From the NCBI GenBank assembly GCA_964635045.1, contig CAZWMJ010000003.1:12011-76010 (forward strand): a stretch of DNA of 64,000 nt, in the 5' to 3' direction. Source of the DNA: an uncultured Gammaproteobacteria bacterium (lineage in GTDB: Bacteria > Patescibacteriota > Microgenomatia > Levybacterales > UBA12049). A program made the translations under genes and the position numbers. The notes beneath the pieces are model-generated. The model searched no databases. It worked only from the letters and a program-made list of their open reading frames with translations, and was not told the origin of the DNA. This document shows positions 5,621 to 50,021 of this stretch, in pieces. Position 1 is the stretch's first letter. The number at the start of each line of letters is the position of its first letter.

Positions 5621-5652
5621 AGTAGATAGAGTATATCATCATTCCCTAAAAC

Positions 5653-34403: not shown

Positions 34404-35465
34404 TTAGGTTTTTCCGTATTGATAGACAGAAGCCGAGGCGTACATGCCTGCTCCAAAACCGACAAATAAGATGGTATCGCCGTTTCTTATTCTTCCTTCT
34501 TTAACAGCTCGTATCAAGGCCTTGGGAATAGAAGCGGAGGATAAATTACCTTGCTCAAGATCATAATATAGTTTTTCCGCAAGATTAGGCGGGAGATGGT
34601 GAGTTAAGGACTCAAGCATTGGTCCGCTGGCCTGATGGGGGATAATAATATCAATGCCGTCTGGCGGCAGTTTTGCCGCTTCTATGGTTTTTTCCATAAG
34701 CCGGGCAATTTCTGCCGCGCTTTTGATAACAGCTCTGCCGTTCATTCTGAATTTTCCTGTTAGAGATGGGGGAACCGGTACCACCATTGCCGGCTCAACA
34801 ACCTGGTCATCATCAAAGGGCATTTCTATAGCTTGTGATTGTGGCTCGGGAAAATGATAATTGAGTGAAGCCAAAGGTAAAAGACCGTCTTTGCCGACGA
34901 TAAAACTTACAGCCACCGCCCCATCGCCAAAAATTGCCTGGGAAAGGGAGGGATCTTGTTGTGCGCCCTGCGGATTTTTTAGATCAACCAGGGTGGGAGA
35001 GTATTTTTCCGAGGAAACTATCAGAACCCGCGCGCCGGCAAAAGCTTCCCGGTATTGATGCAAATGCGAAAGGACTTGAGTAAATCCGGAACAGGCGGCG
35101 TACACATCCAGGGCAATATCGGGATCAAGACCATAGACATGTTCAACTAAATAAGAAGCGTTGTGTTCTTCGGTGGGGTAGCTGGTAGTGAAAAAGACCG
35201 CATCTATTTTGCCACCCGTTCTTCTAACCAGCGGCTCTGCCGCAGCCACACCCATGGAAAGAACTGTTTCGTCGGCATCGGCTTGCGGCCGTTCTATGAC
35301 GCCCAGTTTATCAAAAAAATCTTGCGCTGTTAAAACTCTACCCCCGTTTGTGGCGATATTCCAAGAAGCCAATATATCATTTGTTAAGCGTCCTGTGGGC
35401 AGATATAAACCGCAAGACAAAAGAGGAGTTTCGCTATAAGGCGCGCGCTCAACTCTAATTGTCAT
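34404..35465 (-). CDS. Beta-ketoacyl-ACP synthase III (FabH)-like condensing enzyme
   Basis: Active-site Cys in AACSGF; His in IIPHQASGPM; Asn in FGAGMYASA. GC content visibly higher than surroundings. Confidence 0.6.
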   Translation of the reverse strand: MTIRVERAPYSETPLLSCGLYLPTGRLTNDILASWNIATNGGRVLTAQDFFDKLGVIERPQADADETVLSMGVAAAEPLVRRTGGKIDAVFFTTSYPTEEHNASYLVEHVYGLDPDIALDVYAACSGFTQVLSHLHQYREAFAGARVLIVSSEKYSPTLVDLKNPQGAQQDPSLSQAIFGDGAVAVSFIVGKDGLLPLASLNYHFPEPQSQAIEMPFDDDQVVEPAMVVPVPPSLTGKFRMNGRAVIKSAAEIARLMEKTIEAAKLPPDGIDIIIPHQASGPMLESLTHHLPPNLAEKLYYDLEQGNLSSASIPKALIRAVKEGRIRNGDTILFVGFGAGMYASASVYQYGKT

Positions 35466-35470: not shown

Positions 35471-35869
35471 TTACTTCAATTCTACAGTCGCGCCTGCGGC
35501 CGTAAGTTTAGCTTTGGCCTCTTCCGCTGTTTTTTTGTTGACCGCGGTCATCACTTCTTTGGGCGCGGCGTCAACTAAATCCTTGGCCTCTTTAAGACCC
35601 AATGTTGGGACTAATTCTCGCAGAGCTTTAATAACGGCAATTTTGTTGGCTCCCGAACTTGCCACCACCACATTAAAGACCGTCTGTTCTTCTTTAGGTT
35701 CGTCCGCGTCAGACGCGGTTGCATTTCCAGCGTTTGCCGGCGCTGCGGCTGCCATTGCTTGGGCCGAAACTCCAAACTTTTCCTCCAAAGCTTTCACCAA
35801 CTCGGAAAGCTCCAAAACGGACATCTCCTCAACTGTTTTGATTAAATCATTTTTGCTAAGTTTAGACAT
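35471..35869 (-). CDS. rplL: Ribosomal protein L7/L12
   Basis: [34 protein letters not shown]...[12 protein letters not shown]. Confidence 0.9.
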
Positions 35870-35927
35870 TTATAATCACCTCCATTCGTTATCAGCAACT
35901 AGCCATTAGCAACTAGCCCTCAGTTAT

Positions 35928-36473
35928 TTAACTGATGGCTGAAGGCTGATTACTAGATGCTTTCTTATTTTCAATTATCTTTAGCGTCATCACAAATTTC
36001 TGTAGATTCCAACTCAATGCTCTGTGCAAGCTATAAATGGGCGCTTTCAATCCGCCCACCAACTGAGCAAGCAAGACCTCGCGGGCGGGGAGAGCGGATA
36101 ATTTTAGCAGTTGATCAGCCGTTAGCGCTTGACCCTCCACAATGCCAAATTTAATAACAGGCAGTTTGAGAGTTTTTATTGTCTTGGCAAGCGCTTTTAG
36201 GGGAGCGATAATGTCATTGTAGGCGAACAATGTTGCCGTCGGCCCGTCTAGCGAACTTCCAATTTCCAATTTCCAATTTCCAATTTCCAATGCGCGTTTA
36301 AGTAGAGTATTCTTCGTTACAACGATCTCGGCATCAACAGCCTTGACCATCTTTTTAAGCTCCTCGAGCTGTTTATGAGTCAGGCCCTGATAATCGGCAA
36401 AAACCAAACTTTTGGCGCGGCCGACCTTATCTTTAAGTTTAGCAACAATATCAATTTTCTTCTGACTAGCCAT
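35928..36473 (-). CDS. rplJ: Ribosomal protein L10
   Basis: L10 fold residues upstream of rplL. Contains the in-frame (TTCCAAT)n insertion encoding EIGNWKLEIG (36256-36292). Confidence 0.85.
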   Translation of the reverse strand: MASQKKIDIVAKLKDKVGRAKSLVFADYQGLTHKQLEELKKMVKAVDAEIVVTKNTLLKRALEIGNWKLEIGSSLDGPTATLFAYNDIIAPLKALAKTIKTLKLPVIKFGIVEGQALTADQLLKLSALPAREVLLAQLVGGLKAPIYSLHRALSWNLQKFVMTLKIIENKKASSNQPSAIS

Positions 36474-36479
36474 AATAGT

Positions 36480-36640
36480 AAATTAAAAGTTAAAAGTTCA
36501 AAGTTAAAAATTAAAAAAAACACTCCGAAGAGTGCGCAAAACTTGCTTCTCCTCGGTAGGCTTTATTCCTTTTGGGATCCTACTGTCTCAGGTTTGTCAC
36601 GTTTGACGTGATTTATTAAAGTTTACCACAGAGGGGAGAG
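36480..36640 (-). promoter_or_regulatory. rplJ upstream leader region with heptamer repeats and a CACGTTTGACGTG hairpin
   Basis: aattaaaagttaaaagttcaaagttaaaaattaaaaaaaa tract, then gtcacgtttgacgtgat (36597-36611). Location corresponds to the L10 autoregulatory leader in other bacteria; its structure is not verified here. Confidence 0.3.
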
Positions 36641-36645
36641 AGCTG

Positions 36646-37008
36646 TCAAGAAGAATTTTTCAGAGAAAGCATATTGCCCATGTTAAGCTGACCTCGTATT
36701 TCATTTTGTCTTCTAAGAGCATCTCCGGGCTGTTCGCCCGTTGGAGGGCAAAGCGCCGCCAAAAGCGCATCAAGAGTTCCAATTGAAAGTCCTACTGTTA
36801 TTCTTCCTACAGAAAGAGCGGCTTTGTGTTGATTTGGACAATCTTCATCCGGTCCACGAAGACTGGCGCTTTTTCCGGGGACTAAAAATAATTCTAGAAA
36901 ATCAGTTAAACCAGTTTGGTCAATTTGTTTTAGTGCAGCGAGATGATGAGGCGTAACATATAGCATCCCTGGATTTTGTGATCTTGGGGCCTCTATTGCA
37001 GCCGACAT
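36646..37008 (-). CDS. Hypothetical protein (GC-rich insert between rplA and rplJ)
   Basis: 120-aa ORF with no motifs. Composition differs from neighbours. Confidence 0.3.
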   Translation of the reverse strand: MSAAIEAPRSQNPGMLYVTPHHLAALKQIDQTGLTDFLELFLVPGKSASLRGPDEDCPNQHKAALSVGRITVGLSIGTLDALLAALCPPTGEQPGDALRRQNEIRGQLNMGNMLSLKNSS

Positions 37009-37034
37009 AAATTATATTAAGTATATTATGGTAT

Positions 37035-37559
37035 TTATATTAAATCAAGATGTCGTTTTGGCCTCTGTCTAGCTTGAGGCTTGATTTTAACAGAGTAACC
37101 GTCTGTTAATAAATTTGTTGCAGTTTGTATATGGTTTGATGGATTCTTTTGTTGACTGTCTTCGGGGAAGCAAATCGCCAGAAAGACAGTGATCGCTCCT
37201 AAATCATACAAGGTGGATACAGCTTCTCCGCGGCCATCCGTTGCGACTATACAAGTAGGTTTATGCTTGGGATTTTTCAAGCCGGCGGGATAGACAATAG
37301 GGATAAATCTAACCTCTCTTGTATTAGTTACTGCGGAAGCAAAAGCTACTAATAGCCATTTATGAGTTGAAGCTTGTCGAGCTAATTCCGAATCGGGATT
37401 AAGACCTAATCTTTCTGCGACAGAATCTTTTTTTTCTAAGGTTGTTAGACCGGTTAGTCCTTTAAGAGTAATTTCAGACACAGTAAGAGATGCCGGTCTT
37501 GGCGAATCCGTATGAAACGGAGAACGTCTTATTTCATCAATTTCTCCTAAAGCAGTCAT
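37035..37559 (-). CDS. Hypothetical protein (GC-rich insert between rplA and rplJ)
   Basis: 174-aa ORF with no motifs. Confidence 0.3.
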   Translation of the reverse strand: MTALGEIDEIRRSPFHTDSPRPASLTVSEITLKGLTGLTTLEKKDSVAERLGLNPDSELARQASTHKWLLVAFASAVTNTREVRFIPIVYPAGLKNPKHKPTCIVATDGRGEAVSTLYDLGAITVFLAICFPEDSQQKNPSNHIQTATNLLTDGYSVKIKPQARQRPKRHLDLI

Positions 37560-37760
37560 AGTGACGGGAATAATACCACATATTGTGTCTGATTACAAAT
37601 AGAGTAAGGCTAGCTTAGAGAGGAAATGTCCAGCTTTATTCCCGGGGACCCCACACAATGCTTCCTTGCTCCCATGGTCCTACGTCCATGCGGGACGTCA
37701 AACGTCCCAGCCACGTTTGACTGTGGCGTCGCAAGAGCGCATATGCGGGGGCAAGCATGG

Positions 37761-38657
37761 TTAGGATAATGTTGAAAAATCTATTCTTATTCCAGGAGAC
37801 ATAGTACTTTTTAGTGTTACGCTTTTGATTTTCCCGTTGCCGATGGCTGATAGAACAGCTTGAATGTTGTCTGTCAACTGGTTATCCGTCATGGATAGTT
37901 TGCCCACCGATAGATGGATGATAGGAGCTGTTTCTGTTTTGAAGCGAAGCTGATTGCCTTTCGATAAGCTCAGGGCAAGTTTCCCCGGATCATTGGTGAT
38001 GGTGCCGTTTTTGGGATTGGGCATGAGCCCTCTGGGGCCCAAGATTTTGGCCACTTTGGCTAATTTCGCCATCATGTCCGGCGCGGCAAGGAGCACATCA
38101 AAATCAATCTTGTTTTTTTCAATTTTACCGATTAACTCATCCGTAGCAATCGCCACTCTAATTTGTTTGCCGGTGCCATGGGGAAGATTTACATTGCCGG
38201 AAAGACCTTTTTCTGTGGTATTAACATGCAGTTCAACCGTGCCGTCAATCCGCCAGCTGGCGGATACCTTCCTTAAAAGCTCAAGTGCTTCGGCGAGAGG
38301 ATAGCGTTTAGTTCGGTCAACTGCCACCAATGCCTGTTTGTAGCGGCGGCCTCGCTCACGGGGATGGGTATCACGAGGGGTACGGGTATCACGAGTATCA
38401 CGGGGAATTTCTCCCTGTGGTACCTGTGGTACTTTTTCACCCTGTGATACCTCTATTTTGGCCTGCCCGCCAGTTGCTTCGCCGTCAGGCGATGGCAGGC
38501 GGGCCAGCTCTTCCTCGCTTGGTCCGACAGCCACCACTCTCTCTCCGCCATGAGCGCCTTTGACCAATTTTTTAGCCTCTTTTCTTTTTTTATCCTCTTT
38601 TTTTTGTTCTTTCTCGGCTTCTTCAATGCCGAGAGTCTTAACACGAATTTTTCCCAT
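37761..38657 (-). CDS. rplA: Ribosomal protein L1 with ~100-aa Lys/Pro/Arg-rich N-terminal extension
   Basis: Conserved L1 core (YPLAEALELL...GNVNLPHGTGK...LGPRGLMPNPK). The extension (38340-38657) contains the PRDTRDTRTPRDTHP repeat and is GC-rich. Confidence 0.8.
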   Translation of the reverse strand: MGKIRVKTLGIEEAEKEQKKEDKKRKEAKKLVKGAHGGERVVAVGPSEEELARLPSPDGEATGGQAKIEVSQGEKVPQVPQGEIPRDTRDTRTPRDTHPRERGRRYKQALVAVDRTKRYPLAEALELLRKVSASWRIDGTVELHVNTTEKGLSGNVNLPHGTGKQIRVAIATDELIGKIEKNKIDFDVLLAAPDMMAKLAKVAKILGPRGLMPNPKNGTITNDPGKLALSLSKGNQLRFKTETAPIIHLSVGKLSMTDNQLTDNIQAVLSAIGNGKIKSVTLKSTMSPGIRIDFSTLS

Positions 38658-39079
38658 TACGCTACCTCCACTCCCATCGATCTGGCTACTCCGCCAACTA
38701 TTTTTGATGCAGCGTTAAGGTCATCGGTATTCAAATCTTCCATTTTGGCTTTGGCGATTTCCTCAACTTGAGCTTTGGTTAAACTTCCGACTGTTTCCTT
38801 GCCCGGCTTTTGGGCGCCCTTTTCTTTCATTAGCGCTTTTTTGATCATCTCGGCAACCGGAGGTTTTTTGGTGATGAAAGAAAAAGTGCGATCCACGTAA
38901 ACAGTGATGATTACCGGAATAATGGTGCCTTTGGCCTCCGCTGTTTTTTCGTTGAAAGCCTTGACAAATTCCATGATGGGCAATCCATGCTGTCCCAGAG
39001 CCGGACCAACCGGCGGCGCGGGAGTAGCCTCTCCAGCGGGGATGTTTAGTTTAATTAAAGTTTTAATTTTCTTAGCCAT
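38657..39079 (-). CDS. rplK: Ribosomal protein L11
   Basis: [43 protein letters not shown]. Confidence 0.9.
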
Positions 39080-39089
39080 AATACTTCTA

Positions 39090-39205
39090 GACGATAGAAG
39101 ATAGAAAATAGAGGGTAGTTTTTTGATGCTGGAAGGTTGAAGGTAGATTTCTTGTTATCTAACTTCCATCCTCTATATTCAAAATACTATCTTCTACCAT
39201 CTATC
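39090..39205. repeat. Imperfect long inverted repeat at the boundary of the dnaA-like insertion
   Basis: atagaagatag...atagagggtag on the left, against ctctat...ctatcttctacc on the right, plus ggaagg/ccttcc sub-palindromes. Confidence 0.4.
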
Positions 39206-39268
39206 ATCTACCGTCAAAGTTATCTATTGATTTTAGCATAAAAGGGGAAAGTTATGCAATGAGGATAG

Positions 39269-40390
39269 ATGTTAAGAGAAAAATTTATATTGCAGGAGTA
39301 TAATTGCGATATGAGAGAGCGTGAACATAGAAGGAGACGGGAGATAATTGGACTACCTCTTTCTTCCCGATACACATTTGGAAATTTTGTGGTAGGAGAC
39401 GGTAATCGTGAAGCATCCAGCGCAGCGTTGGAGGTGGCCAGACAGCCAGTCTTTGGCTATAATCCACTCGTTTTTTATGGTGGCGTAGGCATGGGTAAAA
39501 CTCATTTACTTGAGGCTATTGGTAATTACGTTTGCGATCAAGGCGGACAGGTCTTTTACGTAAATGCTGCACAGCCGGAAGCACTGATGGATTTAATTCA
39601 TCAAAGAAGGTCTGCTCATAAATCAATTCGTCAAGCGCGAGTGGTGCTTATTGATGAAGCGCAATTATTTCCAAAAGACAGAGTGATTCGACAAGGTTTG
39701 AGAACCCTAGTCAATAATTTGAATGAGCGACTTGTTCAGTTGGTTTTTGCGGCTGATCGGGGCTCGCAGTTTACAGTATCTTTAGAAAATCCTTCCGGAG
39801 ATCGTTTAAGAGAGAGCGGGGGATTAGTTGTCCGGATTAGACCGCCCGATTTATCAACGCGCATTACTATTTTAGAAAAGAAGGCAGATGAGAAACAGAT
39901 GAAGATCGCTCCGTCGCTTCCAGAAGTTTTTGATTATCTTGCCCGTCGATTTACCGGTAGTATTCGTGAGTTGGAAAGGGGATTAGAGCAAGTTGTAGTT
40001 TATGCGGCAACTCATAATGAGCTTCTTACTCTTGAGACGGCTGTAGCTGCCGTTGAGGAGTTTTTTCAACGATCAAGGCTCACGGCTGAAAGTATTTTGG
40101 CGGCAGTTGCAGAAAAGTATGGCATATCAAGAGAAGCTATGACCACTCATGGACGTGGTGATCCGCAAATTCTTCAAGCGCGTCATGTAGCAATGTATCT
40201 ATTAAGCATAGATACAGAACTCTCACTTGCGGAAATTGGTGAATTACTAGGCGGATTCGAATATTCCACAGTTATCAACGCTTGCGCAAGAATTAGGGAC
40301 GAGCTTGATGCCAATTCAACCTTGAGCAGATGGATTGGCGATATTCGTGGAACCCATGGAGTAAAACTAGATAAAAGTTTATCAGCGTAG
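39269..40390 (+). CDS. DnaA-like AAA+ protein (domains III-IV only)
   Basis: YNPLVFYGGVGMGKTHLL Walker A, VVLIDEAQLF Walker B, C-terminal DnaA domain-IV-like HTH region (ILQARHVAMYLLSI...YSTVINACARI). Lacks DnaA domains I-II. GC-rich. Confidence 0.55.
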   Translation: MLREKFILQEYNCDMREREHRRRREIIGLPLSSRYTFGNFVVGDGNREASSAALEVARQPVFGYNPLVFYGGVGMGKTHLLEAIGNYVCDQGGQVFYVNAAQPEALMDLIHQRRSAHKSIRQARVVLIDEAQLFPKDRVIRQGLRTLVNNLNERLVQLVFAADRGSQFTVSLENPSGDRLRESGGLVVRIRPPDLSTRITILEKKADEKQMKIAPSLPEVFDYLARRFTGSIRELERGLEQVVVYAATHNELLTLETAVAAVEEFFQRSRLTAESILAAVAEKYGISREAMTTHGRGDPQILQARHVAMYLLSIDTELSLAEIGELLGGFEYSTVINACARIRDELDANSTLSRWIGDIRGTHGVKLDKSLSA

Positions 40391-40394
40391 AAAA

Positions 40395-40673
40395 TTATGG
40401 CTTTGGTTTTATTTCTTGTTCAGATTTCAAAAGCATATGAGTGACGACACAAACTGTCCCTGCTGTCATAAAGATTCCATAAGCCGCATAGAAGTCTCCT
40501 GTAGGTCCATTCAACATTCTTTCCTGCATTTTCACTAAGGAAGCAATAGCTGTACCATCTACGGCAGCTCTTGTTACGGTTTCCTTCCAAGAAGAGTTTT
40601 TGGGGACTACTAAATCCCAGCCTTTTAAAATCGCAGCACTAGTTCTAGTAAATGCTGGTTTTAATCTTTCCAT
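40395..40673 (-). CDS. Hypothetical small protein
   Basis: 92-aa ORF inside the same island. Confidence 0.25.
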   Translation of the reverse strand: MERLKPAFTRTSAAILKGWDLVVPKNSSWKETVTRAAVDGTAIASLVKMQERMLNGPTGDFYAAYGIFMTAGTVCVVTHMLLKSEQEIKPKP

Positions 40674-40688
40674 AAGTTTTCTAAGTTT

Positions 40689-41279
40689 CTACAGTTTGCT
40701 GACTTGGAGGAAGTCGAGCTCAACCGGGGTTTCGCGGCCGAAGATGGAAACCAGCACTTTGAGTTTGCCTTTTTTGTCATCGATTTCACTGATGGTTCCC
40801 AAAAAATCGGCAAAGGGGCCGTCCACAATTTTTACCGCTTCATTGACGGAGAAAGCGGTTTTGTAGAGCGGCTCTTCCACTTTCATAAATTTTTGGATTG
40901 CCTCCACTTCTTTATCGGAGATGGGAGTTGGTTTGTTGCCTACACCCACGAAAGCGGTTACTCCCTGGGTGGTTCGAACCAACAGCCATGTTTCATCATC
41001 CAAAATCATTTTTACCAACACGTAGCCGGGGAAAATTTTTTCTTTGACCGTGTCTTTTTTTCCCTGCGAAACTTTAATAGTATTTCTGGTGGGAACGATG
41101 ATGTCAAAGATTCTCTCGGTAAAGCCCAAGGTTTGTATTCTCTGCCATAGCTGTTTGGCAACTTTATCTTCGTGTCCCGAATAGGTATGCACGATATACC
41201 ATCGGCCGTCATTGGGTTTGGCATCTGCTTTCGCTGTTTCTTCTTTTGTTTGTTCAACCGGTATTATTTGTTTGTCCAT
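40689..41279 (-). CDS. nusG: Transcription antitermination factor NusG
   Basis: [21 protein letters not shown] domain and C-terminal KOW region ([19 protein letters not shown]). Confidence 0.85.
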
Positions 41280-41284
41280 ATTAT

Positions 41285-41470
41285 TTATTTTACTATTAAT
41301 TCCATTAATTTGGTAAAGATAAAATCAGCTCCCCCTAAAAAAAGACCAACTATCAAACTTGTCAAAATAACTACAATAGTCAGCCGTGTCACCTCGGCCC
41401 GTGTCGGCCAGGAAACCTTTTTCAGTTCATCCTGAGTTTCTTTTAAAAAAACAATTGGATTTTTTACCAC
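41285..41470 (-). CDS. secE: Preprotein translocase subunit SecE
   Basis: 61 aa. ...[36 protein letters not shown] is typical SecE. Immediately upstream of nusG. Confidence 0.7.
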
Positions 41471-41562
41471 TGCGGGTTATTGTATCAAAGATGCAACGAG
41501 TTGTAAATACTTGCAATAACATGTTACAATAAAACTAACCACGTCAAACGTGGCAAGCTCTT

Positions 41563-42435
41563 ATGAAGATAAGAAAAGCTGTAATTCCCGCCGCTGGATT
41601 TGGAACGAGGTTTCTTCCCCAAACCAAGGCTATGCCCAAAGAGATGCTGCCGATTGTGGACAAGCCTGTTATTCAATATGTGGTGGAGGAGGTAGTTGAT
41701 GCCGGCGTGGAGGATGTAATTATAGTTACAGGGGCGAACAAACGGGCGATTGAAGATCATTTTGACACTCCGGCCGCCGAGCTTTCTTCGTGGTTGGAAG
41801 TGGGAGGCAAAGAAAAGGCGCTTTCGGAAATAAAAAGAATTTCCGAGATGGCCAATTTTATCTATATTCGTCAAAAAGGTCCTTACGGCAATGCCACCCC
41901 CATTAGAAGCGTTAAGCATCTGGTTAACGGAGAGCCCTTTTTAGCTTTTTGGGGAGATGAGTTTACCAAAGCAGATCCTTCCCGGGCAAAACAAATGATT
42001 AAAGCTTATGAAAAATATAATGGAGCGGTTTTGGGCGGAATGAAGCTGTCGCGGCCGGAAGATTTCAAGCGTTATGGATATGTCAAGGGAAAAGAAATTG
42101 AGCCGGGAGTGTGGATTGTAGATGGTCTGGTGGAAAAACCCGGCAAGAACAGCGCCCCCTCGGATCTGGCAATTGTGGCCAATTATCTGCTGACGCCCGA
42201 TATTTTCCCGGTACTTGAGGATCAAAAGCCGGGGACGGGAGGAGAATATTATTTGCCGGAGGCGATAGATACGCTGGCCCGGGAAAAACCGGTTTATGCT
42301 CTGGAGATAAAAAACGCCAAATATTTTGATACGGGAAATAAGCTGGAATATATGCGAACAGTGGTGGAGTTTGCTCTGGAACATCCGGAAGTCAACGGAG
42401 AATTCCGTCAGTTCCTCAAGGGGTTGAAGTTGTAA
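41563..42435 (+). CDS. galU: UTP-glucose-1-phosphate uridylyltransferase
   Basis: KAVIPAAGFGTRFLPQTKAMPKEMLPIVDKPVIQYVVEE. Confidence 0.85.
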   Translation: MKIRKAVIPAAGFGTRFLPQTKAMPKEMLPIVDKPVIQYVVEEVVDAGVEDVIIVTGANKRAIEDHFDTPAAELSSWLEVGGKEKALSEIKRISEMANFIYIRQKGPYGNATPIRSVKHLVNGEPFLAFWGDEFTKADPSRAKQMIKAYEKYNGAVLGGMKLSRPEDFKRYGYVKGKEIEPGVWIVDGLVEKPGKNSAPSDLAIVANYLLTPDIFPVLEDQKPGTGGEYYLPEAIDTLAREKPVYALEIKNAKYFDTGNKLEYMRTVVEFALEHPEVNGEFRQFLKGLKL

Positions 42436-42467
42436 ATAGATTCTTTTTTTGATAAAATAGGGTACTT

Positions 42468-42842
42468 ATGGATAGGAGAGAAAGAGATTATGGTGGAAGA
42501 CCTCGTTCAATACTCCCAGTAAGTAGAATAGTTGATAAAGCTATACCGACAGTAGATCGCGTGATAGGTTTTTTTGACCGGATTCGTCACCCAAACGGAG
42601 CAGTCAACCCCCATGCATCTGCAATAGAAGAGGTGATGAGAGCGGCAAAAAGAGATAATATGGATGTGCTTTTAAGACCGACCGGTCAGCATCTGGAAGT
42701 TGTTGTTGGCAGATTTGTCAGTGAACATGAGCGGATTGTTAAAGTTGGAGCTGGCGTTGTTTTGACTGCCGGTTTAGTGGCAGGAGCGGCAGGATTTTGG
42801 CTTCGCAGACATCGTCGTGAGCCCCCAAAACCAAAAAAATAA
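42468..42842 (+). CDS. Hypothetical protein with C-terminal TM helix
   Basis: 124-aa ORF with no motifs. Confidence 0.3.
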   Translation: MDRRERDYGGRPRSILPVSRIVDKAIPTVDRVIGFFDRIRHPNGAVNPHASAIEEVMRAAKRDNMDVLLRPTGQHLEVVVGRFVSEHERIVKVGAGVVLTAGLVAGAAGFWLRRHRREPPKPKK

Positions 42843-42871
42843 TAGTAAAATTTGCTATACTATAATTTATC

Positions 42872-43507
42872 ATGACAAAACGATTATCGATTTTCTTTCT
42901 GGGAGTTTTTCTTTTTGCTTCTTTTGTCGCTTTTTCCTATTTTGTTCATAAAGACCTTTTCACCCAATTTGATTTTGATACTACGGTCAAAATTCAGGAT
43001 CACGTTTCGGATAGACTCAGTAGTTTTTTTTCCTACTTTAGTTTAATGGGAAGCGCTGAAGTGATAACAGCCGTTTTGATTGTTGTGGTTTTTTTCCCCC
43101 GTCAGATCCTGCGGAAATTATTTATGCTGCCGGCCTATGTTTTAGTTTTCTTTTTCGGTATTTATGGCAAGACTTTTGTTGAACACAAAGGCCCGCCGTT
43201 TTTGTTTTATCATTACAAGCTAAACTTTCTTTTCCCCACCAGCTATGTGCAGACAGCCAATTCTTATCCTTCCGGACATTCGGCCAGAACCATATTTTTA
43301 AGCGTAATTCTCATCGCGCTTTTGCTAAAAGATGGGAAGTTCACGCCGCTGAAGATATTTTTAGTACTGTTTATTTTATCTTTTGATTTGATCATGCTGG
43401 TTTCCCGAGTGTATCTGGGCGAGCATTGGACAACGGATGTCGTTGGGGGAGCGCTTCTGGGAGCCAGTCTGGGGCTTTTAGCAACTTATGTTATTATAGA
43501 TGGGTGA
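42872..43507 (+). CDS. PAP2-family membrane phosphatase
   Basis: PSGHS and SRVYLGEHWTTDV (SRx5Hx3D) are PAP2 motifs 2 and 3. Confidence 0.7.
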   Translation: MTKRLSIFFLGVFLFASFVAFSYFVHKDLFTQFDFDTTVKIQDHVSDRLSSFFSYFSLMGSAEVITAVLIVVVFFPRQILRKLFMLPAYVLVFFFGIYGKTFVEHKGPPFLFYHYKLNFLFPTSYVQTANSYPSGHSARTIFLSVILIALLLKDGKFTPLKIFLVLFILSFDLIMLVSRVYLGEHWTTDVVGGALLGASLGLLATYVIIDG

Positions 43508-44868
43508 AGTGGTTGGTTTTTATCCTATTTTTATTATTTACCATATCTTCAACGCTTGTTTCTCTCAACCGCTTTTGGCAGTACGAGGTGTTTTATTATG
43601 ATTTTGGTATTTTTGACAGAGCCATTTGGCAGGCGGCGCACTTTCAGGCTCCCATTATCGATCATTTGGTGGTGGGAGGAAAATGGATTTTTGCCGATCA
43701 TTTCAATCCCAGCATCTTTATTTTTTCTCCTCTTTACTGGTTGACCAACAGAAGCGAGATTTTGTTGATTGCTCAGGCGGTGGTGGTGGGACTGTCCGGA
43801 CTGGTGATTTATCAAATAGGAAAAATCGTTACCAAACACTCATTTTTTTCTTTGGGCGTGGTAGTTTGTTACTATCTTTTTATCGGTCTGCAAAACGCGG
43901 TGATTTCCGATTTCCACGAAACTACGCTGACCACTCTTTTTATAACTCTTGCTTATTATTTTTTTCTGAAAAACAGAAAGATTTGGTTTCTGATGTTTTT
44001 TATTTTGATACTTGGTTTTAAGGAAAGCAATTTTTTGCTGGGGATGGGGATGGCGGTAAGTATAGCTCTATTAAATAAAACTTGGCGCAAGTTTTCGTTT
44101 CACTTAATAATTCTCTCAATTATTTGGGGGATAGTGGCGATTAAACTGTTGATTCCTTATTTTTCCGGAGGGATATTTCAGTATGAGGTGGTGTTTTCCT
44201 GGGATAAGTTAAATATTATAGCCGATCTATTTGATAGTGAGATGAAAAGGTCGGTCGTTTTTGACAGCCTATTTGCTTTTGGCTTGTTACCGATTGTCAA
44301 TCCGGCATTTTGGTTTGTGATAATTCAGGATTTTCTGGTGAGATTTCTTTCAGGCAGAGTCAGTCTTGGTCTTCACTACAGCGCCATGTTGGGCTCTATT
44401 ATGGCGATTGCCTCCATTTATAGTTTTTCTCTCATCATAAAAGTTAGAGATATCAGAAGACATTTTTATTTGGTACCTATTATTTTGATTCTAACTTCTT
44501 TTTTTCTTTATCGCTTCGTCATGCACGGACCGCTGGCTCTTTCTTATCATCCTCAGTTTTACAGCCACACCGGCGATTTTAAATTTTTGGATAGTCTTCT
44601 TTCCAAAATTCCCAAAAATGCCACAGTGATGACTCAAAACAATCTGGCCTCTCACCTGACTCATCAAAAAAAGATATGGGTGTTAAAAGATAATTATGAA
44701 GTTTATAAAGCAGATTATATTATTATGGATTTGCGAAGTGGTCAGAGCGCCAATAATTTTTTCCCCACCAAAAATCCGAAGGAAATCTTAAAAAAACTGA
44801 TAGCCGATCCCGATTATTCTTCGATGTTTAACAACAAAAATCAATACATCTTCCAAAGAAAACCATAA
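43504..44868 (+). CDS. Large polytopic membrane protein (DUF2079/GT-C-like)
   Basis: About 12 TM helices. YDFGIFDRAIWQ block. Probable GTG start at 43504 overlapping the PAP2 stop by 4 nt; the ORF track starts at 43426. Confidence 0.45.
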   Translation: MKWLVFILFLLFTISSTLVSLNRFWQYEVFYYDFGIFDRAIWQAAHFQAPIIDHLVVGGKWIFADHFNPSIFIFSPLYWLTNRSEILLIAQAVVVGLSGLVIYQIGKIVTKHSFFSLGVVVCYYLFIGLQNAVISDFHETTLTTLFITLAYYFFLKNRKIWFLMFFILILGFKESNFLLGMGMAVSIALLNKTWRKFSFHLIILSIIWGIVAIKLLIPYFSGGIFQYEVVFSWDKLNIIADLFDSEMKRSVVFDSLFAFGLLPIVNPAFWFVIIQDFLVRFLSGRVSLGLHYSAMLGSIMAIASIYSFSLIIKVRDIRRHFYLVPIILILTSFFLYRFVMHGPLALSYHPQFYSHTGDFKFLDSLLSKIPKNATVMTQNNLASHLTHQKKIWVLKDNYEVYKADYIIMDLRSGQSANNFFPTKNPKEILKKLIADPDYSSMFNNKNQYIFQRKP

Positions 44869-44906
44869 TTTTTTCCCCAAGTTTTGATAGAATAGGGGAA
44901 AATCTT

Positions 44907-47474
44907 ATGGCTAATTGGGAAAGAGGCCCGTTTGGTCTTAGAACAACACAAGAGGGGTTGCCTATTGCGCAGCAGAGAGTAGAGATAAGAGAGGCGATTC
45001 TGCGCAGTCATACTATTATTGTGGTTGGTGAGACTGGTTCAGGCAAAACAACACAAATTCCTCTCATGTTTCTTGATGCACTTTCTCCCAGAGCAAAAAT
45101 CGCCATTACAGAGCCAAGACGTCTTGCAGCAACTTCGGTGGCACGGTTTGTAGCTGGACAAAGAGGTTCAAGATTAGGTGGGGAGGTGGGTTATCAGGTT
45201 CGTTTTGACGATCAGACTGGTCTTGGTACCAGACTTAATTTTTATACAGATGGTTTATTACTAAGAAAAATACAAGCCGATCCACAACTTTTAGAATTCG
45301 ACGCTGTGATGGTAGATGAAGCACACGAGAGAAATTTGGATACTGATTTCTTGTTAGGACTTTTGAAAAGCATTCAGCGCAGACGAAAGGAAGGAGCAAG
45401 AGAGTTAAAAATCGCGGTGGCCTCCGCCACCATGGAAGAAAGTAAGTTCGCCGCCTTTTTGGATGATGCTCCCATTATCCGTATTCCGGGAAGACAATAT
45501 CCGGTTGCCATTCATTATGAAGCGCCAGGATTTGATTACGTCTCCACAGCCACCCAAAGAGCAATAGCCATTGTTCAGAGTGGAGATGATGGAAATATTC
45601 TCATTTTTATGCCCGGTGTGGAGGAAATAAATAGGACTATAAGAGTATTACGGCAACATGGAGTATATGGATCAATTATTTTGCCGCTCCATGGACAGCT
45701 AACGGCTGAAGAGCAAGATAGGGTTTTTGAAGATGGATCCCAGCGAAAAATTATTGTGACCACCAATATTGCTGAAACTTCGGTCACTATCCCTAATGTC
45801 CGATTTGTGATTGATGCTGGATTTATTCGACAGATTGAGTTTAATCCAGAGACAGGCATAGAAGCTTTAGTCACGGTACCACATGCTCAAAGCGGAGCTA
45901 TTCAGCGAGCAGGCAGGGCAGGAAGAACGGCCCCGGGGGAATGTTATCGTCTTTATTCGGAGCAAAATTATCAGCAAAGACCACCCTTCCAACGGCCGGA
46001 AATACAACGGGTGAATTTGGGACGGGTAGTGCTTTTGATGAAAAAATTAGGCATCAACGATATTGAGAAGTTTGAATTTGTCGATCAACCACCAAAAGAA
46101 TTATTAACACAAGCTATTGAAACATTACAATTCCTCGGTGCTTTGGATGATGAGGGTAATTTAACGCAGGTAGGCAGTCTTATGGCTGAGTTTCCGCTGG
46201 AACCGCATGCTTCACGAACTGTGGTGGAAGCCATCAAAAAATCCTGTATAGATGAGGTTTGTACAATCATGGCCTTTAATGGTTTGCGATCGGTTTTTGC
46301 AGTTCCTTTTGGCCAAAAGGAGCAAGCGGAGCAAGCGCATCGCCGGTTTAGAGTAGATGGTTCCGACTTTTTAACACTTCTTCGTGTTTGGAAATTGTTT
46401 GTTGAGCAAAAGATGGATGAAGGGTGGGCGCATGATAATTTTCTTAATTATTCCACTTTAAGAGAAGCAGGAAATATTCGCTTACAGCTTCTGGCCATTC
46501 TGGGGAGATTTGGTATAAAACCGAACAGAGAGGCTGCTCCCGAGGCAATTGCCAAGTCGATTATTGCCGGTCATGCCGATAATTTATTGGTTGCCACCAA
46601 AAGCCGTTCTTATAAAGATAGCTATAAACTGATTCGAGGGGGCAGTACTGTTTTTATCCATCCATCATCGGTTTTATTTGGTAGCAATGCTACCTTTGCT
46701 GTGGCCTCGCAAATTGTTAGAATTGATAATGGTGTTCGGGCTCATCTTTGTCAAGTTGTTGAACCTGGCTGGATTTCTGAGGTGGCTTCGCAACTTCTCA
46801 TCAAAGAACAAAAACCTCAACTTCATTATTCTAAAACAGGAGAAGTGGTGGAGAGAGTTCCTGTTTGTCTAAAAGGTGACCCTGATCACCCCATTTCTTT
46901 TTTTGAAAAACCAGCTGTTAGTCCTTTAGCAGCCAGAGTATTTGCCAATGCGCTGGCTCAAGGGATTGTTTCTTTACCAGAGGAGATAATAAGACATAAT
47001 AAAGGCGTAATGGAACGAGCGAGGGATTTTTGGATACGTTCAGCCGGCAGGATACCAAGAGATTTTGATCCAGCCAAAGTCTTTACAGCCAAAGAGTTGA
47101 CAGCAGTATTTGTTGGAAGAATTGGAAATATCACTTCCAGACTGGCTCTTCTTAAGGCAATGAAAGAGGGGAGAGTGGATATCCGACTTCAGATGGAAGA
47201 TTATATCCCTTCCGATTTACAGGAAGAAATAGTTTCAGGTAATCCTGATACAATTACTATTGGAGGTAGAACATATTCAATTGGATACACACGTAAGGGA
47301 AGATTTTCCGCTCATATCGTCGTTGGACTTGAAGATTTACCTTTATTGCCGGATGACCTTGCTCTTCCTAATGGCCGTCAAGTATATGTTAGCGTGCGGA
47401 TTGAGAATGAACAATCAGGAAGACCTCTTTCCGTAAGCCAAGCAAAAGAAAAACACACCCCCAATTTGCTATAG
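44907..47474 (+). CDS. DEAH-box ATP-dependent RNA helicase, HrpA/HrpB-like
   Basis: VVGETGSGKTTQIP (motif I), DEAHER (motif II), TNIAETSVTI, QRAGRAGR (motif VI). 855 aa with HA2/OB-like C-terminal region. Confidence 0.8.
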   Translation: MANWERGPFGLRTTQEGLPIAQQRVEIREAILRSHTIIVVGETGSGKTTQIPLMFLDALSPRAKIAITEPRRLAATSVARFVAGQRGSRLGGEVGYQVRFDDQTGLGTRLNFYTDGLLLRKIQADPQLLEFDAVMVDEAHERNLDTDFLLGLLKSIQRRRKEGARELKIAVASATMEESKFAAFLDDAPIIRIPGRQYPVAIHYEAPGFDYVSTATQRAIAIVQSGDDGNILIFMPGVEEINRTIRVLRQHGVYGSIILPLHGQLTAEEQDRVFEDGSQRKIIVTTNIAETSVTIPNVRFVIDAGFIRQIEFNPETGIEALVTVPHAQSGAIQRAGRAGRTAPGECYRLYSEQNYQQRPPFQRPEIQRVNLGRVVLLMKKLGINDIEKFEFVDQPPKELLTQAIETLQFLGALDDEGNLTQVGSLMAEFPLEPHASRTVVEAIKKSCIDEVCTIMAFNGLRSVFAVPFGQKEQAEQAHRRFRVDGSDFLTLLRVWKLFVEQKMDEGWAHDNFLNYSTLREAGNIRLQLLAILGRFGIKPNREAAPEAIAKSIIAGHADNLLVATKSRSYKDSYKLIRGGSTVFIHPSSVLFGSNATFAVASQIVRIDNGVRAHLCQVVEPGWISEVASQLLIKEQKPQLHYSKTGEVVERVPVCLKGDPDHPISFFEKPAVSPLAARVFANALAQGIVSLPEEIIRHNKGVMERARDFWIRSAGRIPRDFDPAKVFTAKELTAVFVGRIGNITSRLALLKAMKEGRVDIRLQMEDYIPSDLQEEIVSGNPDTITIGGRTYSIGYTRKGRFSAHIVVGLEDLPLLPDDLALPNGRQVYVSVRIENEQSGRPLSVSQAKEKHTPNLL

Positions 47475-47503
47475 GCCTTAATTTTTGATATACTTAACGC
47501 CTC

Positions 47504-48565
47504 ATGACAGCAGAAAGACCATCTGGTCCAGATCAAGGCACCCGACTTGCCGAAAGTCTACTAGGCAGTGAAAAGGTTTTGTCTGGGCTTTTAGCTGGAG
47601 ATAAAAGAAAAAGGCCAATTTTGCAAGTAATGGTTTCCAAACTCATGGATGATCCTCTAGGACAACGTGGTTTCATAGAAACAATTTTTAGTGAGTTAGC
47701 CGGAGAAGGTGATTTTAGGGATATAAGAAGACGCAATGCGGCACTGGCAATTCTGGTGGATGATGAAGGTGATAATATCAGTTTACCAAAGGATATAAGA
47801 CCGATTGTAGAGGCTAATCCAACAGTGGTATGTGTTGCATATCAAAGGGCAGTTGCCCGACAGACAAAATTGAATAATCCTTTTTCTGGTTCTATTTATA
47901 GGCTTCTTAAAGTCGGACAAGCTATAGCTTCTTACCTTGGCAAAGATGCACAAAAAGGGCAAGAAATTGTAGATGGGTGGGAACAACTGGCAGGACAGTT
48001 TCCTGGAATTGATGTTCGAAATTATATACGCGCAGAAGTTCAAAAAATTAAAGACGGAATGTTTCCTCACGCTCAACTTGATTTTAGGGTGGAACAATTA
48101 AGGAAAGAGGGATTAACAAATCTTCAAATAGCAGAGAGGTTAGCAAGGACACTGCCGGTCATTGCGGCTTCAGCCAGCCGTTTGATTGCCCAGGGAAGAA
48201 TAGAACGAAGGGACAATGTTTCAGCGGCTAAACTCCTGCAGATTTTACAAGAATTTAAAGCTGCTTATCCGGTCGGGGCACTCTCTTTAAAAGAGATGGG
48301 AAAAAAACTGGGAGAAGCACTTGGTAAAGGGCCAAGAACCCGGGAACGGGCAAGACAGATTTATGATAAGTTAAAAGCGGCGCATGATGATCTTCCTCCG
48401 ACAAGGGGAGTCGGTGTGGAAAAACTTCCTTCAGAATACCGAGAGCGTTTAAGTCGGGAAGTTTCAGCAAGGATTAATCAAGGCATGGACAAAAAACAAA
48501 TAGCGGATGAACTGCATGTTCCAGCCACTTGGGTTGAGAAATTATCACCTCCCAAAATGATCTGA
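47504..48565 (+). CDS. Hypothetical protein co-transcribed with the helicase
   Basis: 353-aa ORF 30 nt after the helicase stop. No confident motifs. Confidence 0.35.
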   Translation: MTAERPSGPDQGTRLAESLLGSEKVLSGLLAGDKRKRPILQVMVSKLMDDPLGQRGFIETIFSELAGEGDFRDIRRRNAALAILVDDEGDNISLPKDIRPIVEANPTVVCVAYQRAVARQTKLNNPFSGSIYRLLKVGQAIASYLGKDAQKGQEIVDGWEQLAGQFPGIDVRNYIRAEVQKIKDGMFPHAQLDFRVEQLRKEGLTNLQIAERLARTLPVIAASASRLIAQGRIERRDNVSAAKLLQILQEFKAAYPVGALSLKEMGKKLGEALGKGPRTRERARQIYDKLKAAHDDLPPTRGVGVEKLPSEYRERLSREVSARINQGMDKKQIADELHVPATWVEKLSPPKMI

Positions 48566-48628
48566 TTTCACATCTTGCCGCTTTTATACCTTTGTTTACA
48601 CACCTTGGGGGTGTGCTAGGTTCATATT

Positions 48629-49320
48629 TTACAACTTAGCTTCTGGCGGAAGATCTGTATCAACTATCTTGTTAATTATTTCCAAAGCAGTTTTCATAAG
48701 GACAAAATCTCTTGCTAACATAGGAGCCTGCACAGATATCGTTCCGCCAATGGGGTGCCCTTCAATTTGCAAATCTGCCCTACCATCAGCAAGTTCTTCA
48801 GGAAGGCGAATTACTTTTGCAAAGTTACCAGTTTCGTCTACCAGATAATAAGTATGATATCTATCCGAAAAAGCAATGCCCGGGAAGGTCATATCGTTAA
48901 CCTCTTCTTCTGTAAAGACGCCTGCGACACGTTCTTTCACTTCATCAAGTGTTAATCCAAATCGTTCTTCCCAATCATAGGCATGATGCCGTCTGACTGC
49001 TTCCCAGGTTTCTCTGTCGGTATGTAAACCGAGACTTACCATTGTGGGAGTATTGACTCCAACCTTCGAAAGTGCTCTGGCGCTCCGTTGAAGGAATGAA
49101 TGACACCAATACTGACTTCATCAATACCCTGAAATGTACAATCAGTATAAAACCAGAGCATTTCACTATCACGATATCCACCCATGTCTTCAAATCTTTC
49201 AGGGGATTTATCAGCAAATCTAATTAGTTTTTCAACAACTTTTTGTTGTAAACGCGCTAGATCCCTTGCAAGCTCTTTATTTCTCGCTTGTTCGATAAAA
49301 ACTTCTTTTGCGGGAAACAT
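48629..49320 (-). pseudogene. Frameshifted gene (two overlapping ORFs 49036..49320 and 48629..49042)
   Basis: Adjacent minus-strand ORFs in different frames overlapping by 7 nt. A third frame is also open across the junction. Confidence 0.3.
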
Positions 49321-49356
49321 TGTTTTGTCAAGAAAGCGGGCAGGCCAGATTCGATG

Positions 49357-49429
49357 TGGCAGGGATGCCAGGATTCGAACCTGGAAAAGCAGTTTTGGAG
49401 ACTGCCGTGATACCGTTTCACCACATCCC
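49357..49429 (-). tRNA. tRNA-Trp (anticodon CCA), CCA encoded
   Basis: Acceptor AGGGATG/CATCCCT; anticodon stem GCAGT/ACTGC with loop CTCCAAA; T-arm CCAGG-TTCGAAT-CCTGG; 3' GCCA. Confidence 0.85.
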
Positions 49430-49484
49430 TACGTTGCTAGTTTCTCAGGGTAAAACCTATTCATATTAAAAAGCTAGGAAATAT

Positions 49485-49660
49485 TATTTCAGTTTTTCTG
49501 TTTCTTTGTGATCGGTGCGTTTGCGGCAGTGTCGGCAATACTTTTTCAACACCAGCTTTTCCGGCGTGTTTAATTTATTGCGGCTGGTAATATAATTTCT
49601 GTTTTTACAAACAGCACAAGTGAGTCCCAAAGTAACTCTGTGTTCGCCTTTTTTCGCCAC
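49485..49660 (-). CDS. rpmG: Ribosomal protein L33
   Basis: Translation (GTG start) MAKKGEHRVTLGLTCAVCKNRNYITSRNKLNTPEKLVLKKYCRHCRKRTDHKETEKLK, with two CxxC pairs. Not in the supplied ORF track because it is under 60 aa. Confidence 0.7.
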
Positions 49661-49820
49661 TTCGTCGCTTTGCCAAGTCAGACTTGGCTTTGCTTCTCAG
49701 CGCAAGCATTTAATCGCTTGAACTAAAAAGCTACCTCCTTCTTTAGAGTTTACACCGATGTTGCTTAAAAAGCAACAGAATGTGAGCCGGCGATGGGAAT
49801 CGCCCGCCTTGCCATTTTTG

Positions 49821-49892
49821 AGCCGACAGTGGGAATCGAACCCACGCTCAATTCATTACCAATGAATCGTTTTGCCACTAAACTATGTCGGC
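49821..49892 (-). tRNA. tRNA-Thr (anticodon GGT)
   Basis: Acceptor GCCGACA/TGTCGGC; anticodon stem ATTCA/TGAAT with loop TTGGTAA; T-arm GTGGG-TTCGATT-CCCAC. Confidence 0.8.
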
Positions 49893-49937
49893 TAAGTTAA
49901 TATATTTTACTTGAAGATTTAAAAAAAACAAGTACGG

Positions 49938-50021
49938 TGCTAAGGGAGGGAATTGCACCCCCGAAGCCCTTTCGGACGTCTGGTCTACAGCCAGATGCGA
50001 TTGCTACTCCGCCACCTTAGC
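49938..50021 (-). tRNA. tRNA-Tyr (anticodon GTA) with long variable arm
   Basis: Acceptor GCTAAGG/CCTTAGC; D-arm GCGG-AGTAGCAA-TCGC; anticodon stem TCTGG/CCAGA with loop CTGTAGA; long variable stem CCGAA-AGGGC-TTCGG. T-loop TGCAATT is atypical. Confidence 0.7.

Follow-up and report, generated by a model that had tools for sequence, protein, structure and literature searches.

A divided secE-nusG-rplKAJL gene neighbourhood is probably the normal organisation in Levybacteria

In the 64,000-nucleotide stretch analysed here (hereafter the window; contig CAZWMJ010000003.1 of the metagenome-assembled Levybacterales genome GCA_964635045.1, positions 12,011 to 76,010), the gene groups rpmG-tRNA-Trp, secE-nusG and rplKAJL are parted from one another by three blocks of other genes. 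We consider it probable that this arrangement represents the normal, lineage-wide organisation in Levybacteria and other Microgenomates, rather than three recent insertions into an unbroken string. The original prediction, which had read the three inserts as recently acquired, named the genes and their order (rpmG-tRNA-Trp, secE-nusG, rplKAJL and the three inserts) in full agreement with the open reading frame (ORF) listing, ARAGORN and Pfam. Its claim of recent acquisition holds for the cargo genes and, at the level of genus and not of strain, for the nusG-rplK slot, and fails for the architecture, which appears to be ancestral and typical of the lineage: relatives share the gene order and do not share the cargo. 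The finding is real and ordinary for the lineage, and there is no evidence for a new mechanism or system.

Genes were called from the ORF listing, ARAGORN and Pfam, with further scans against Rfam, NCBIfam, PHROG and PADLOC. For comparison we retrieved 80 loci, each centred on a NusG relative with 10 kb of flanking sequence, and mapped the window proteins onto them; the set comprises 36 Levybacteria-like loci, 30 loci from more distant Microgenomates and 14 outgroup loci (L067-L080, mostly Proteobacteria). The closest NusG sequences among 185,579 species genomes belong to Levybacteria bins (75-85% identity), and the exact window proteins were found solely on one NCBI contig and in Logan assemblies of a few sequencing runs. 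A literature search on ribosomal-operon synteny in the candidate phyla radiation (CPR) found no relevant paper.

Gene order in the window

34404-35465, minus strand: FabH/KAS III-like (type III PKS-like) gene (Pfam ACP_syn_III_C, Chal_sti_synt_N)
35471-35869, minus strand: rplL (Pfam L12_N, L12)
35928-36473, minus strand: rplJ (Pfam L10)
36504-36610, minus strand: L10 leader-like element (RF00557, 40.9 bits)
36646-37008, minus strand: 120-aa ORF (no family match)
37035-37559, minus strand: 174-aa ORF (no family match)
37761-38657, minus strand: rplA (Pfam L1)
38657-39079, minus strand: rplK (Pfam L11_N, L11)
39269-40390, plus strand: DnaA-like gene (Pfam Bac_DnaA 3.4e-29, Bac_DnaA_C 6.8e-17)
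40395-40673, minus strand: 92-aa ORF, 15 bp 3' of nusG (no family match)
40689-41279, minus strand: nusG (Pfam NusG and KOW)
41285-41470, minus strand: secE (Pfam SecE)
41563-42435, plus strand: galU-like UTP-glucose-1-phosphate uridylyltransferase (Pfam NTP_transferase)
42468-42842, plus strand: 124-aa ORF with a C-terminal hydrophobic stretch, between galU and PAP2 (no Pfam match)
42872-43507, plus strand: PAP2 phosphatase (Pfam PAP2)
43426-44868, plus strand: DUF2079 membrane protein (Pfam DUF2079, 2e-40)
44907-47474, plus strand: DEAH/HrpA-like helicase, 855 aa (Pfam DEAD, Helicase_C, HA2_N, HA2_C, OB_NTP_bind)
47504-48565, plus strand: 353-aa protein, N-terminal domain and helix-turn-helix (HTH) repeats (family alignment A1, Pfam matches of the family)
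48629-49042, minus strand: 137-aa ORF (no Pfam, PHROG or PADLOC match)
49036-49320, minus strand: 94-aa ORF (no Pfam, PHROG or PADLOC match)
49357-49430, minus strand: tRNA-Trp (ARAGORN, Rfam tRNA)
49484-49660, minus strand: rpmG (Pfam Ribosomal_L33, 3.2e-18)
49820-49892, minus strand: tRNA-Thr(ggt) (ARAGORN, Rfam tRNA)
49936-50021, minus strand: tRNA-Tyr (ARAGORN, Rfam tRNA)
50178-50252, minus strand: tRNA-Thr(tgt) (ARAGORN, Rfam tRNA)

Three of these genes, namely the 92-aa ORF, the 124-aa ORF and the FabH-like gene, were absent from the original prediction.

The canonical cluster, known from E. coli, B. subtilis, Thermotoga and Streptomyces, has the order (tRNA-Thr-Tyr-Thr)-(tuf)-rpmG-tRNA-Trp-secE-nusG-rplKAJL-rpoBC. 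Separate promoters serve secE-nusG, rplKA and rplJL in E. coli and B. subtilis, and the rplJ leader is bound by L10-L12. The window resembles this cluster in its genes, in their relative order and common strand, in the intact secE-nusG, rplKA and rplJL, and in a putative L10 leader before rplJ. It differs by the presence of galU-PAP2 and variable genes, the DnaA-like gene and orphan ORFs in between, by the lack of tuf and rpoBC in the neighbourhood, and by the FabH-like gene and galT that follow rplL. The gaps inside the units amount to 5 bp (secE/nusG), -1 bp, i.e. a 1-nt overlap (rplK/rplA), and 58 bp (rplJ/rplL); the intervals between them are 7.9 kb from tRNA-Trp/rpmG to secE, 1.6 kb from nusG to rplK and 1,287 bp from rplA to rplJ. 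Every break in the window falls at a putative unit boundary.

Most breaks are shared by relatives, most of the cargo is not

Mapping of the window proteins onto the comparison loci gives a similar picture across the 66 Microgenomates loci. The gap is below 500 bp in 62 of 62 loci for secE-nusG, in 55 of 56 for rplK-rplA and in 25 of 25 for rplJ-rplL, and the gaps between units reach 7 kb. In the 14 outgroup loci, which served as a control, nusG, rplK, rplA, rplJ and rplL are contiguous, with all gaps below 500 bp.

The separation of rpmG from secE is found in all 18 Levybacteria-like loci scored, at 2.2-9.4 kb and in either orientation, the two genes never being adjacent; in 17 of the 30 more distant Microgenomates rpmG does not occur within at least 5 kb of secE, and the sole outgroup locus showing rpmG (L067) has it 316 bp away. 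The tRNA-rpmG array of the relatives is placed between an M50 peptidase gene and PAP2, again in either orientation. Next to secE, galU is divergent and less than 500 bp distant in 25 of 32 Levybacteria-like loci, and PAP2 comes next after galU in about 25 Levybacteria loci. Judged from these distributions, the rpmG-secE split seems to be ancestral and the position of galU-PAP2 beside secE old, at the level of the phylum. The predicted parting of rpmG and tRNA-Trp from secE by about 8 kb is real, and its recent origin does not hold for the galU-PAP2 split.

Between rplA and rplJ, the Levybacteria-like loci show a median distance of 1,266 bp (range 173-6,222), with 12 of 20 at 1 kb or more. Among the distant Microgenomates, 14 lack rplJL for at least 5 kb from rplA, and the 7 others have it no closer than 1.4 kb. 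We regard this interval as a probable variable slot that is differently filled in different clades, with an apparently ancestral break. The two hypothetical ORFs that had been predicted here are indeed present; with such a median gap in relatives, the break itself is not recent, nor are the ORFs GC-rich (see below). Both the 174-aa and the 120-aa protein form singleton clusters, and the former has no homologue among 5.8 billion proteins. The possibility that they are remnants of the usual slot genes was rejected, as acyltransferase and NUDIX profile searches found nothing in the window. Downstream of these ORFs, the RF00557 element scores 40.9 bits against a gathering threshold of 44 (E=0.0011), its match extending over the whole model; the same model is above gathering directly 5' of rplJ in two relatives (L007, 52.3 bits, and L005, 47.0 bits), where the leader stands beyond 2.6 and 3.8 kb of inserted genes, respectively. 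The promoter scan places a promoter-like site at 36649-36620, between the inserted ORFs and rplJ.

At the other end of rplJL, in the usual place of rpoB, the FabH-like gene begins 5 bp 3' of rplL and has the same orientation. NCBIfam FabH models remain below their cutoffs for this gene, and no homologue was found in any of the 80 related loci, which makes it a fourth window-specific cargo gene, with a GC content at third codon positions (GC3) of 0.41 that is like the conserved genes and unlike the other cargo. In 11 relatives rplL is followed by galT, not by rpoB.

The fourth boundary has a different history. The nusG-rplK gap is below 500 bp in 31 of 32 Levybacteria-like loci, and the slot appears to have opened only in the genus-level lineage of the window. 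A congener on a Logan contig (L082), with 95% identity to the window in NusG, 93% in GalU, 90% in SecE and 82% in PAP2, has the genes DnaA-like/nusG/secE/galU/ORF/PAP2 in the window order; it lacks the 92-aa ORF and carries a gene of the 23S-rRNA-intervening-sequence (IVS) family (34-417, PF05635) where the window has rplK. Since the DnaA-like gene and the 124-aa ORF occur in both, these insertions predate the split of the two species. The slot seems to be still changing between the congeners, and the DnaA-like gene and the 124-aa ORF to be fast-evolving. A dnaA-like gene between nusG and rplK had been predicted correctly, while its recent strain-level acquisition is contradicted by the congener, which shares the position at 80% identity. 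Taken by boundary, the breaks look old at rpmG-secE, rplA-rplJ and rplL-rpoB, and new at nusG-rplK.

The genes that fill these gaps in relatives are mostly unrelated to one another (131 gap ORFs have no BLASTP match to any other). They are of ordinary kinds and include acyltransferase and NUDIX genes 3' of rplA in a subclade of Levybacteria, ABC transporter genes between rpmG and PAP2, and genes for a glycosyltransferase, a ricin-type lectin, an SDR, a peptidase, GlmS, an Ig-domain protein and one IS200-like transposase; no filler in the relatives is homologous to those of the window. Of the ten window-specific proteins looked up, nine are singleton clusters at 90% identity, and the 174-, 120- and 92-aa ORFs, the helicase, the HTH-repeat protein and the two ORFs beside tRNA-Trp were found in this genome alone among comparable material. 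The ten proteins scanned with PADLOC gave no defence match, and PHROG returned only generic helicase, AAA+ and HTH families. A gene of the 23S-rRNA-IVS family (four-helix bundle), judged by eye only, also lies beside rpmG in a Levybacterium locus (L099, 76-408), and by eye a 125-aa ORF of the window (60885-61262, GC3 0.22) is 23S-rRNA-IVS-like.

Hot spots of accessory-gene turnover between conserved blocks of core genes are an established concept for bacterial genomes. The window resembles them in that the same positions hold unrelated genes in each relative while the flanking core is fixed; unlike general hot spots, the slots lie inside what is usually the most syntenic bacterial region, in very small CPR genomes, and mobility genes are almost absent.

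Composition of the inserted genes

The inserts had been described as visibly GC-richer than the ribosomal genes, and this had been taken to argue for recent acquisition. The GC and codon-usage profile gives the opposite sign: the inserts have a GC content of 0.422 (rplA-rplJ), 0.413 (nusG-rplK) and 0.419 (41471-49356), compared with 0.452 in the rplJL and 0.477 in the rplKA block. GC3 is 0.26-0.33 in 9 of 10 inserted genes (the 120-, 174-, 92-, 124-, 137-, 94- and 353-aa ORFs, the DnaA-like gene and the helicase; 0.26 for the 174- and 120-aa ORFs, 0.28-0.32 for the 94- and 137-aa ORFs) and 0.41-0.51 in 8 of 9 conserved genes, the exception being secE at 0.31 (Mann-Whitney p=0.0013, inserted versus conserved). 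The values of galU, PAP2 and DUF2079 (0.42 in the latter) are host-like. Most inserted genes encode Gly/Ala/Arg/Pro-rich proteins, and low GC3 is frequent among the other accessory genes of the window. Such a composition fits accessory genes under weak codon selection, or gain from relatives of lower GC content.

A high-GC (e.g. actinobacterial) donor was considered and found to be unsupported, as homologues of the helicase in other CPR genomes have an equal amino-acid bias. The named DnaA matches of the DnaA-like protein are actinobacterial; an actinobacterial donor of this gene is not supported all the same, because its product is about equally distant (33-39% identity) from all DnaAs aligned. 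The surroundings of the nearest canonical DnaA match do not resemble CPR, which does not by itself identify a donor.

The combination of a Gly/Ala/Arg/Pro-rich product and low GC3 was seen elsewhere in the window only at 20446-21930 (minus strand; 494 aa, with weak Asp/Glu racemase and tRNA_edit matches) and at 54040-54450 (plus strand; a 136-aa orphan), and each of these two genes stands singly among neighbours of different composition.

Transcription units as proposed limits of variable slots

The explanation we favour is that the string would consist of separate transcription units, i.e. the tRNA-rpmG-tRNA-Trp array, secE-nusG, rplK-rplA, and rplJ-rplL with its own promoter and L10 leader. 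Rearrangement and insertion would be tolerated between these units and not within them, and the unit boundaries would act as variable slots, the contents of which turn over on different time scales: galU-PAP2 would be old, the filling of rplA-rplJ would depend on the clade, and nusG-rplK would be a new opening, made by a truncated DnaA paralogue that is degenerating. The other fillers would be orphan or sporadic, fast-evolving genes with AT-rich third positions that were gained relatively recently, by transfer or local rearrangement, and are under weak selection. The data themselves show the gene order, the pattern across loci, the integrity of the units, the difference in composition and the support for the assembly. 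We infer both the restriction of breaks to unit boundaries by selection on co-transcription and the route by which each cargo gene arrived.

Several points weigh against this explanation. The unit boundaries are drawn from what is known of E. coli and B. subtilis, from consensus promoter scans and from one leader match below threshold, and should be read as putative. The gap distances were taken from the edges of tblastn matches and are approximate. Most comparison loci are metagenome bins with a NusG identity of 55-85%, and the single closer relative found (L082) is a 4.6-kb Logan contig; with only one such relative and the rest at that distance, the time of arrival cannot be bracketed for most of the cargo. 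The low GC3 of the inserts may reflect weak codon selection, not foreign origin. Finally, the recurrence near secE of a truncated DnaA (L044) and of the HTH-repeat family (L098, L099), described in the next section, is not predicted by random filling of slots.

DnaA-like and HTH-repeat genes near secE

The DnaA-like protein comprises the AAA+ domain III and the DNA-binding domain IV and begins about 30 residues before domain III; no DnaA_N match (PF11638) and no domain I or II was detected in it, while the canonical matches carry PF11638. It scores 247.2 bits with TIGR00362 (cutoff 343.9), over profile positions 100-433 of 437. Its one close relative is the L082 protein, 80% identical, the next being at most 39% identical, and a metagenome scan for further close relatives found none. 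The Walker A (GGVGMGKTH) and Walker B (VVLIDEAQ) motifs are retained and align with the canonical ones (alignment A2). Box VII, RLRSRFEWGL in canonical DnaAs, reads RLRESGGL in the window and RLGESGGL in the L082 orthologue; the DHTTV signature is changed to EYSTV in the window and to DHSTV in L082, and the TSDR region reads AADR in the window. That the Box VII arginines and the DHTTV residues have a functional meaning is background knowledge on DnaA. Compared with DnaA (TIGR00362; PDB 8btg, 2z4r), the gene product thus shares the domain III Walker motifs and Bac_DnaA_C and differs by the lack of domains I and II and by altered motifs; from Hda, which is likewise a truncated DnaA relative, it differs by retaining domain IV and by a score far below cutoff (72.3 bits with TIGR03420, cutoff 194.8). 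Between the window and L082, dN/dS is 0.41 for this gene and 0.04-0.07 for nusG and galU, which suggests that it is weakly under purifying selection. In our view, this is a DnaA paralogue that is degenerating or has shifted in function.

A replication origin at this gene was rejected: its neighbours are nusG and rplK, not dnaN, a search for the DnaA box TTATCCACA with at most 1 mismatch gave 21 matches (16.4 expected) with none clustered nearby, and the cumulative GC skew rises monotonically across the window, with no switch.

The dS of the DnaA-like gene (window 39311-40390 versus L082 510-1565) is 0.27, about half of that of nusG and galU (0.52-0.65), and its dN is higher; the low dS may be due to codon constraints unlike theirs or to a later exchange of the gene.

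A second truncated DnaA-like gene was found in a distant Microgenomate (L044, 7891-9720), where it stands together with two small orphan ORFs directly 5' of secE; it also lacks domain I, scores 326 bits with TIGR00362 (below the same cutoff) and has an apparent frameshift near its 3' end. The 353-aa protein of the window, in turn, belongs to a family with 81 representatives among 1.84 billion proteins, which combine a conserved N-terminal domain of about 190 aa with a variable number of tandem HTH repeats. Members match HTH_24, HTH_38, Sigma70_r4_2 and GerE, and the HTH repeats are also matched in PDB, where a hit to a 'CAP repeat' was discarded as a designed protein. Members of this family are encoded beside galU and divergent from it in a Levybacterium (L099, 2806-3786), and 7.6 kb from secE in another Microgenomate (L098, 8001-8942).

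These occurrences are what would be expected if the DnaA-like and HTH-repeat genes were old, fast-evolving residents of the secE-nusG neighbourhood, perhaps regulatory, that have been lost in most lineages, i.e. if the present pattern resulted from differential retention. The equal positions of the DnaA-like gene and the 124-aa ORF in the window and L082, with dN/dS values of 0.41 and 0.23, are in line with it as well. On the other hand, the window and L044 DnaA-like genes occupy different slots and are 36% identical, a value within the 33-43% that they share with canonical DnaAs; L098, which resembles L044, has the slot empty, secE being directly beside an ASCH-like gene; about 60 other loci contain neither family; and the sample is tiny, since the neighbourhood could be judged at 3 of the 5 sites of the HTH-repeat family. 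We therefore find differential retention unlikely, and treat the recurrence of the DnaA-like gene (L044) and the HTH-repeat family (L098, L099) near secE, seen in a very small sample, as a lead and not as a finding.

The block between secE and tRNA-Trp

The galU-like protein scores 283 bits with TIGR01099 (cutoff 327), and promoter-like sites were predicted on both sides of the divergent secE/galU region, one of them at 41507-41479. In other relatives the spacing between galU and PAP2 is usually below 200 bp, i.e. the 124-aa ORF is missing; in L082 an orthologue (122 aa, 59-60% identity) occupies the same position, and the dN/dS of 0.23 indicates that the ORF is probably under purifying selection. 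The listed TTG start of DUF2079 overlaps PAP2 by 82 nt, and the true start is probably located 3' of it; among the relatives, DUF2079 has a single match of 22% identity (in L030). By these comparisons, the variable part of the block would extend from DUF2079 to tRNA-Trp only.

Within this part, the helicase is of the DEAH/RHA type and of a subfamily typical of CPR, with the DEAD, Helicase_C, HA2 and OB set present. It remains below the cutoffs of both HrpA (TIGR01967, 517 versus 722.75 bits) and HrpB (TIGR01970, 377 versus 546), and its homologues, at 40-54% identity, are spread across CPR including Levybacteria, always in differing contexts. The 94- and 137-aa ORFs, which the original prediction had taken for a frameshifted gene, overlap at ATGGTAA (stop/start), where Logan contigs of 5 runs are identical. 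No homologue of the pair was found among the fetched loci, no database-wide search having been run on it; the exact 94-aa sequence is not in the cluster collection, and the 137-aa protein is a singleton cluster.

Could the roughly 8 kb between secE and tRNA-Trp be one recent genomic island that used tRNA-Trp as attachment (att) site, the other inserts being the same or similar mobile DNA? Islands and integrative elements associated with tRNA genes commonly consist of variable, lineage-specific genes at the tRNA 3' end with a composition unlike that of conserved neighbours, and the window block abuts the 3' end of tRNA-Trp, and contains nucleic-acid-handling genes (the DEAH helicase and the HTH-repeat protein) with the DnaA-like gene nearby; most window-specific genes have a compositional signature in common. 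In addition, Logan unitigs break within tRNA-Trp, although such breaks are expected from sequence shared with co-occurring organisms. Against an island, Pfam, PHROG and NCBIfam detect no integrase, recombinase or transposase in 41.5-49.4 kb, and the tRNA 3' end is not duplicated as a direct repeat, none involving the tRNA-Trp gene (49357-49430). The block also has no phage, plasmid or defence genes, in keeping with the generic PHROG families and the negative defence scan noted above. Its galU-PAP2 part is ancestral, being conserved at this position throughout Levybacteria, and galU, PAP2 and DUF2079 have host-like GC3. When the DnaA-like gene, as the sole query, was compared by tblastn with phage and plasmid records, nothing above generic DnaA similarity of 32-36% was obtained, and IMG/VR scans found no relatives of the DnaA-like gene or of the HTH-repeat family. 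With neither att repeat nor integrase, we rejected the tRNA-Trp island, which we hold to be very improbable. The single nearby repeat (I8) is an inverted one, between the sequence just 3' of tRNA-Trp and coding sequence of rplA.

Assembly support

Independent Logan contigs from several runs match the window at 98.5-100% identity over three stretches. These are 38913-41657, from the start of rplK to the start of galU; 36265-37719 (with L095 among the contigs), which begins just 5' of the 174-aa ORF, takes in the 120-aa ORF and ends in rplJ; and 45652-49405, from the helicase to tRNA-Trp. The 92-aa ORF is present in two independent Logan contigs (L081, L083). Mis-assembly is excluded at the covered junctions, and the junction of rplA with the 174-aa ORF and the segment 41.7-45.6 kb are outside this coverage. 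An assembly or binning chimera that joined ribosomal-gene fragments to unrelated DNA, which the metagenomic origin and the heterogeneous composition (GC of 0.32-0.49 per 1 kb) might suggest, is scarcely credible in view of these independent assemblies and of the matching gene order from the DnaA-like gene to PAP2 in the congener.

Other observations in the window

Ribosomal protein L1 (298 aa) has an N-terminal extension of about 100 aa, rich in Lys, Glu, Arg and Pro, and its best Pfam L1 stretch covers residues 170-288. The extension is apparently a trait of the lineage, since for many Levybacteria and other Microgenomates the tblastn alignments start with the first residue of the protein.

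A near-palindrome, CACGTTTGACGTG, occurs exactly at 36598-36610 and 41540-41552, just 3' of the promoter-like sites of rplJ and galU, and in a variant form 3' of rplA (37694-37706). With at most 2 mismatches, the window contains 6 matches (0.71 expected); the motif was found neither in the homologous spacer of L082 nor in any other locus. A 22-nt motif, AACTAGCCATTAGCAACTAGCC, and close variants of it are arranged in tandem in the rplJ-rplL spacer (35883-35918) and also occur directly 5' of tRNA-Tyr (50024-50045).

Further away, two adjacent paralogous ORFs (58545-59435 and 59863-60789, minus strand; 296 and 308 aa) are identical in their first 25 residues, MEENLPQPQVPVNPVPVAPSPVLST, and look as if a gene for a proline-rich protein had been duplicated in tandem. 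A 207-aa protein (53211-53834, plus strand) contains a PaaX central / Cas2-like domain (PF20803, 2e-20; CRISPR_Cas2, 3.4e-6).

Implications

The DnaA paralogue between nusG and rplK, shared by two congeners and with an independent counterpart beside secE elsewhere, might be a DnaA-derived regulator. A more far-reaching idea, to which we give little credence, is that the boundaries of secE-nusG and rplKA in Microgenomates repeatedly attract or retain fast-evolving DNA-binding genes (DnaAs without domain I and the HTH-repeat family), either as an integrase-less mobile element or as a regulatory module. If true, it would mean either an unrecognised mobile element without integrase that targets the boundaries of these two units, or a lineage-specific module that couples DnaA-like ATP sensing to the expression of the transcription/translation core.

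The most syntenic region of bacterial genomes is routinely split in Levybacteria and other Microgenomates and, on the organisation of separate units with variable slots that we prefer, only between transcription units. This calls for caution in synteny-based annotation and in checks for contig chimeras in CPR bins, and it provides a catalogue of slots in which the accessory genes of CPR may turn over.

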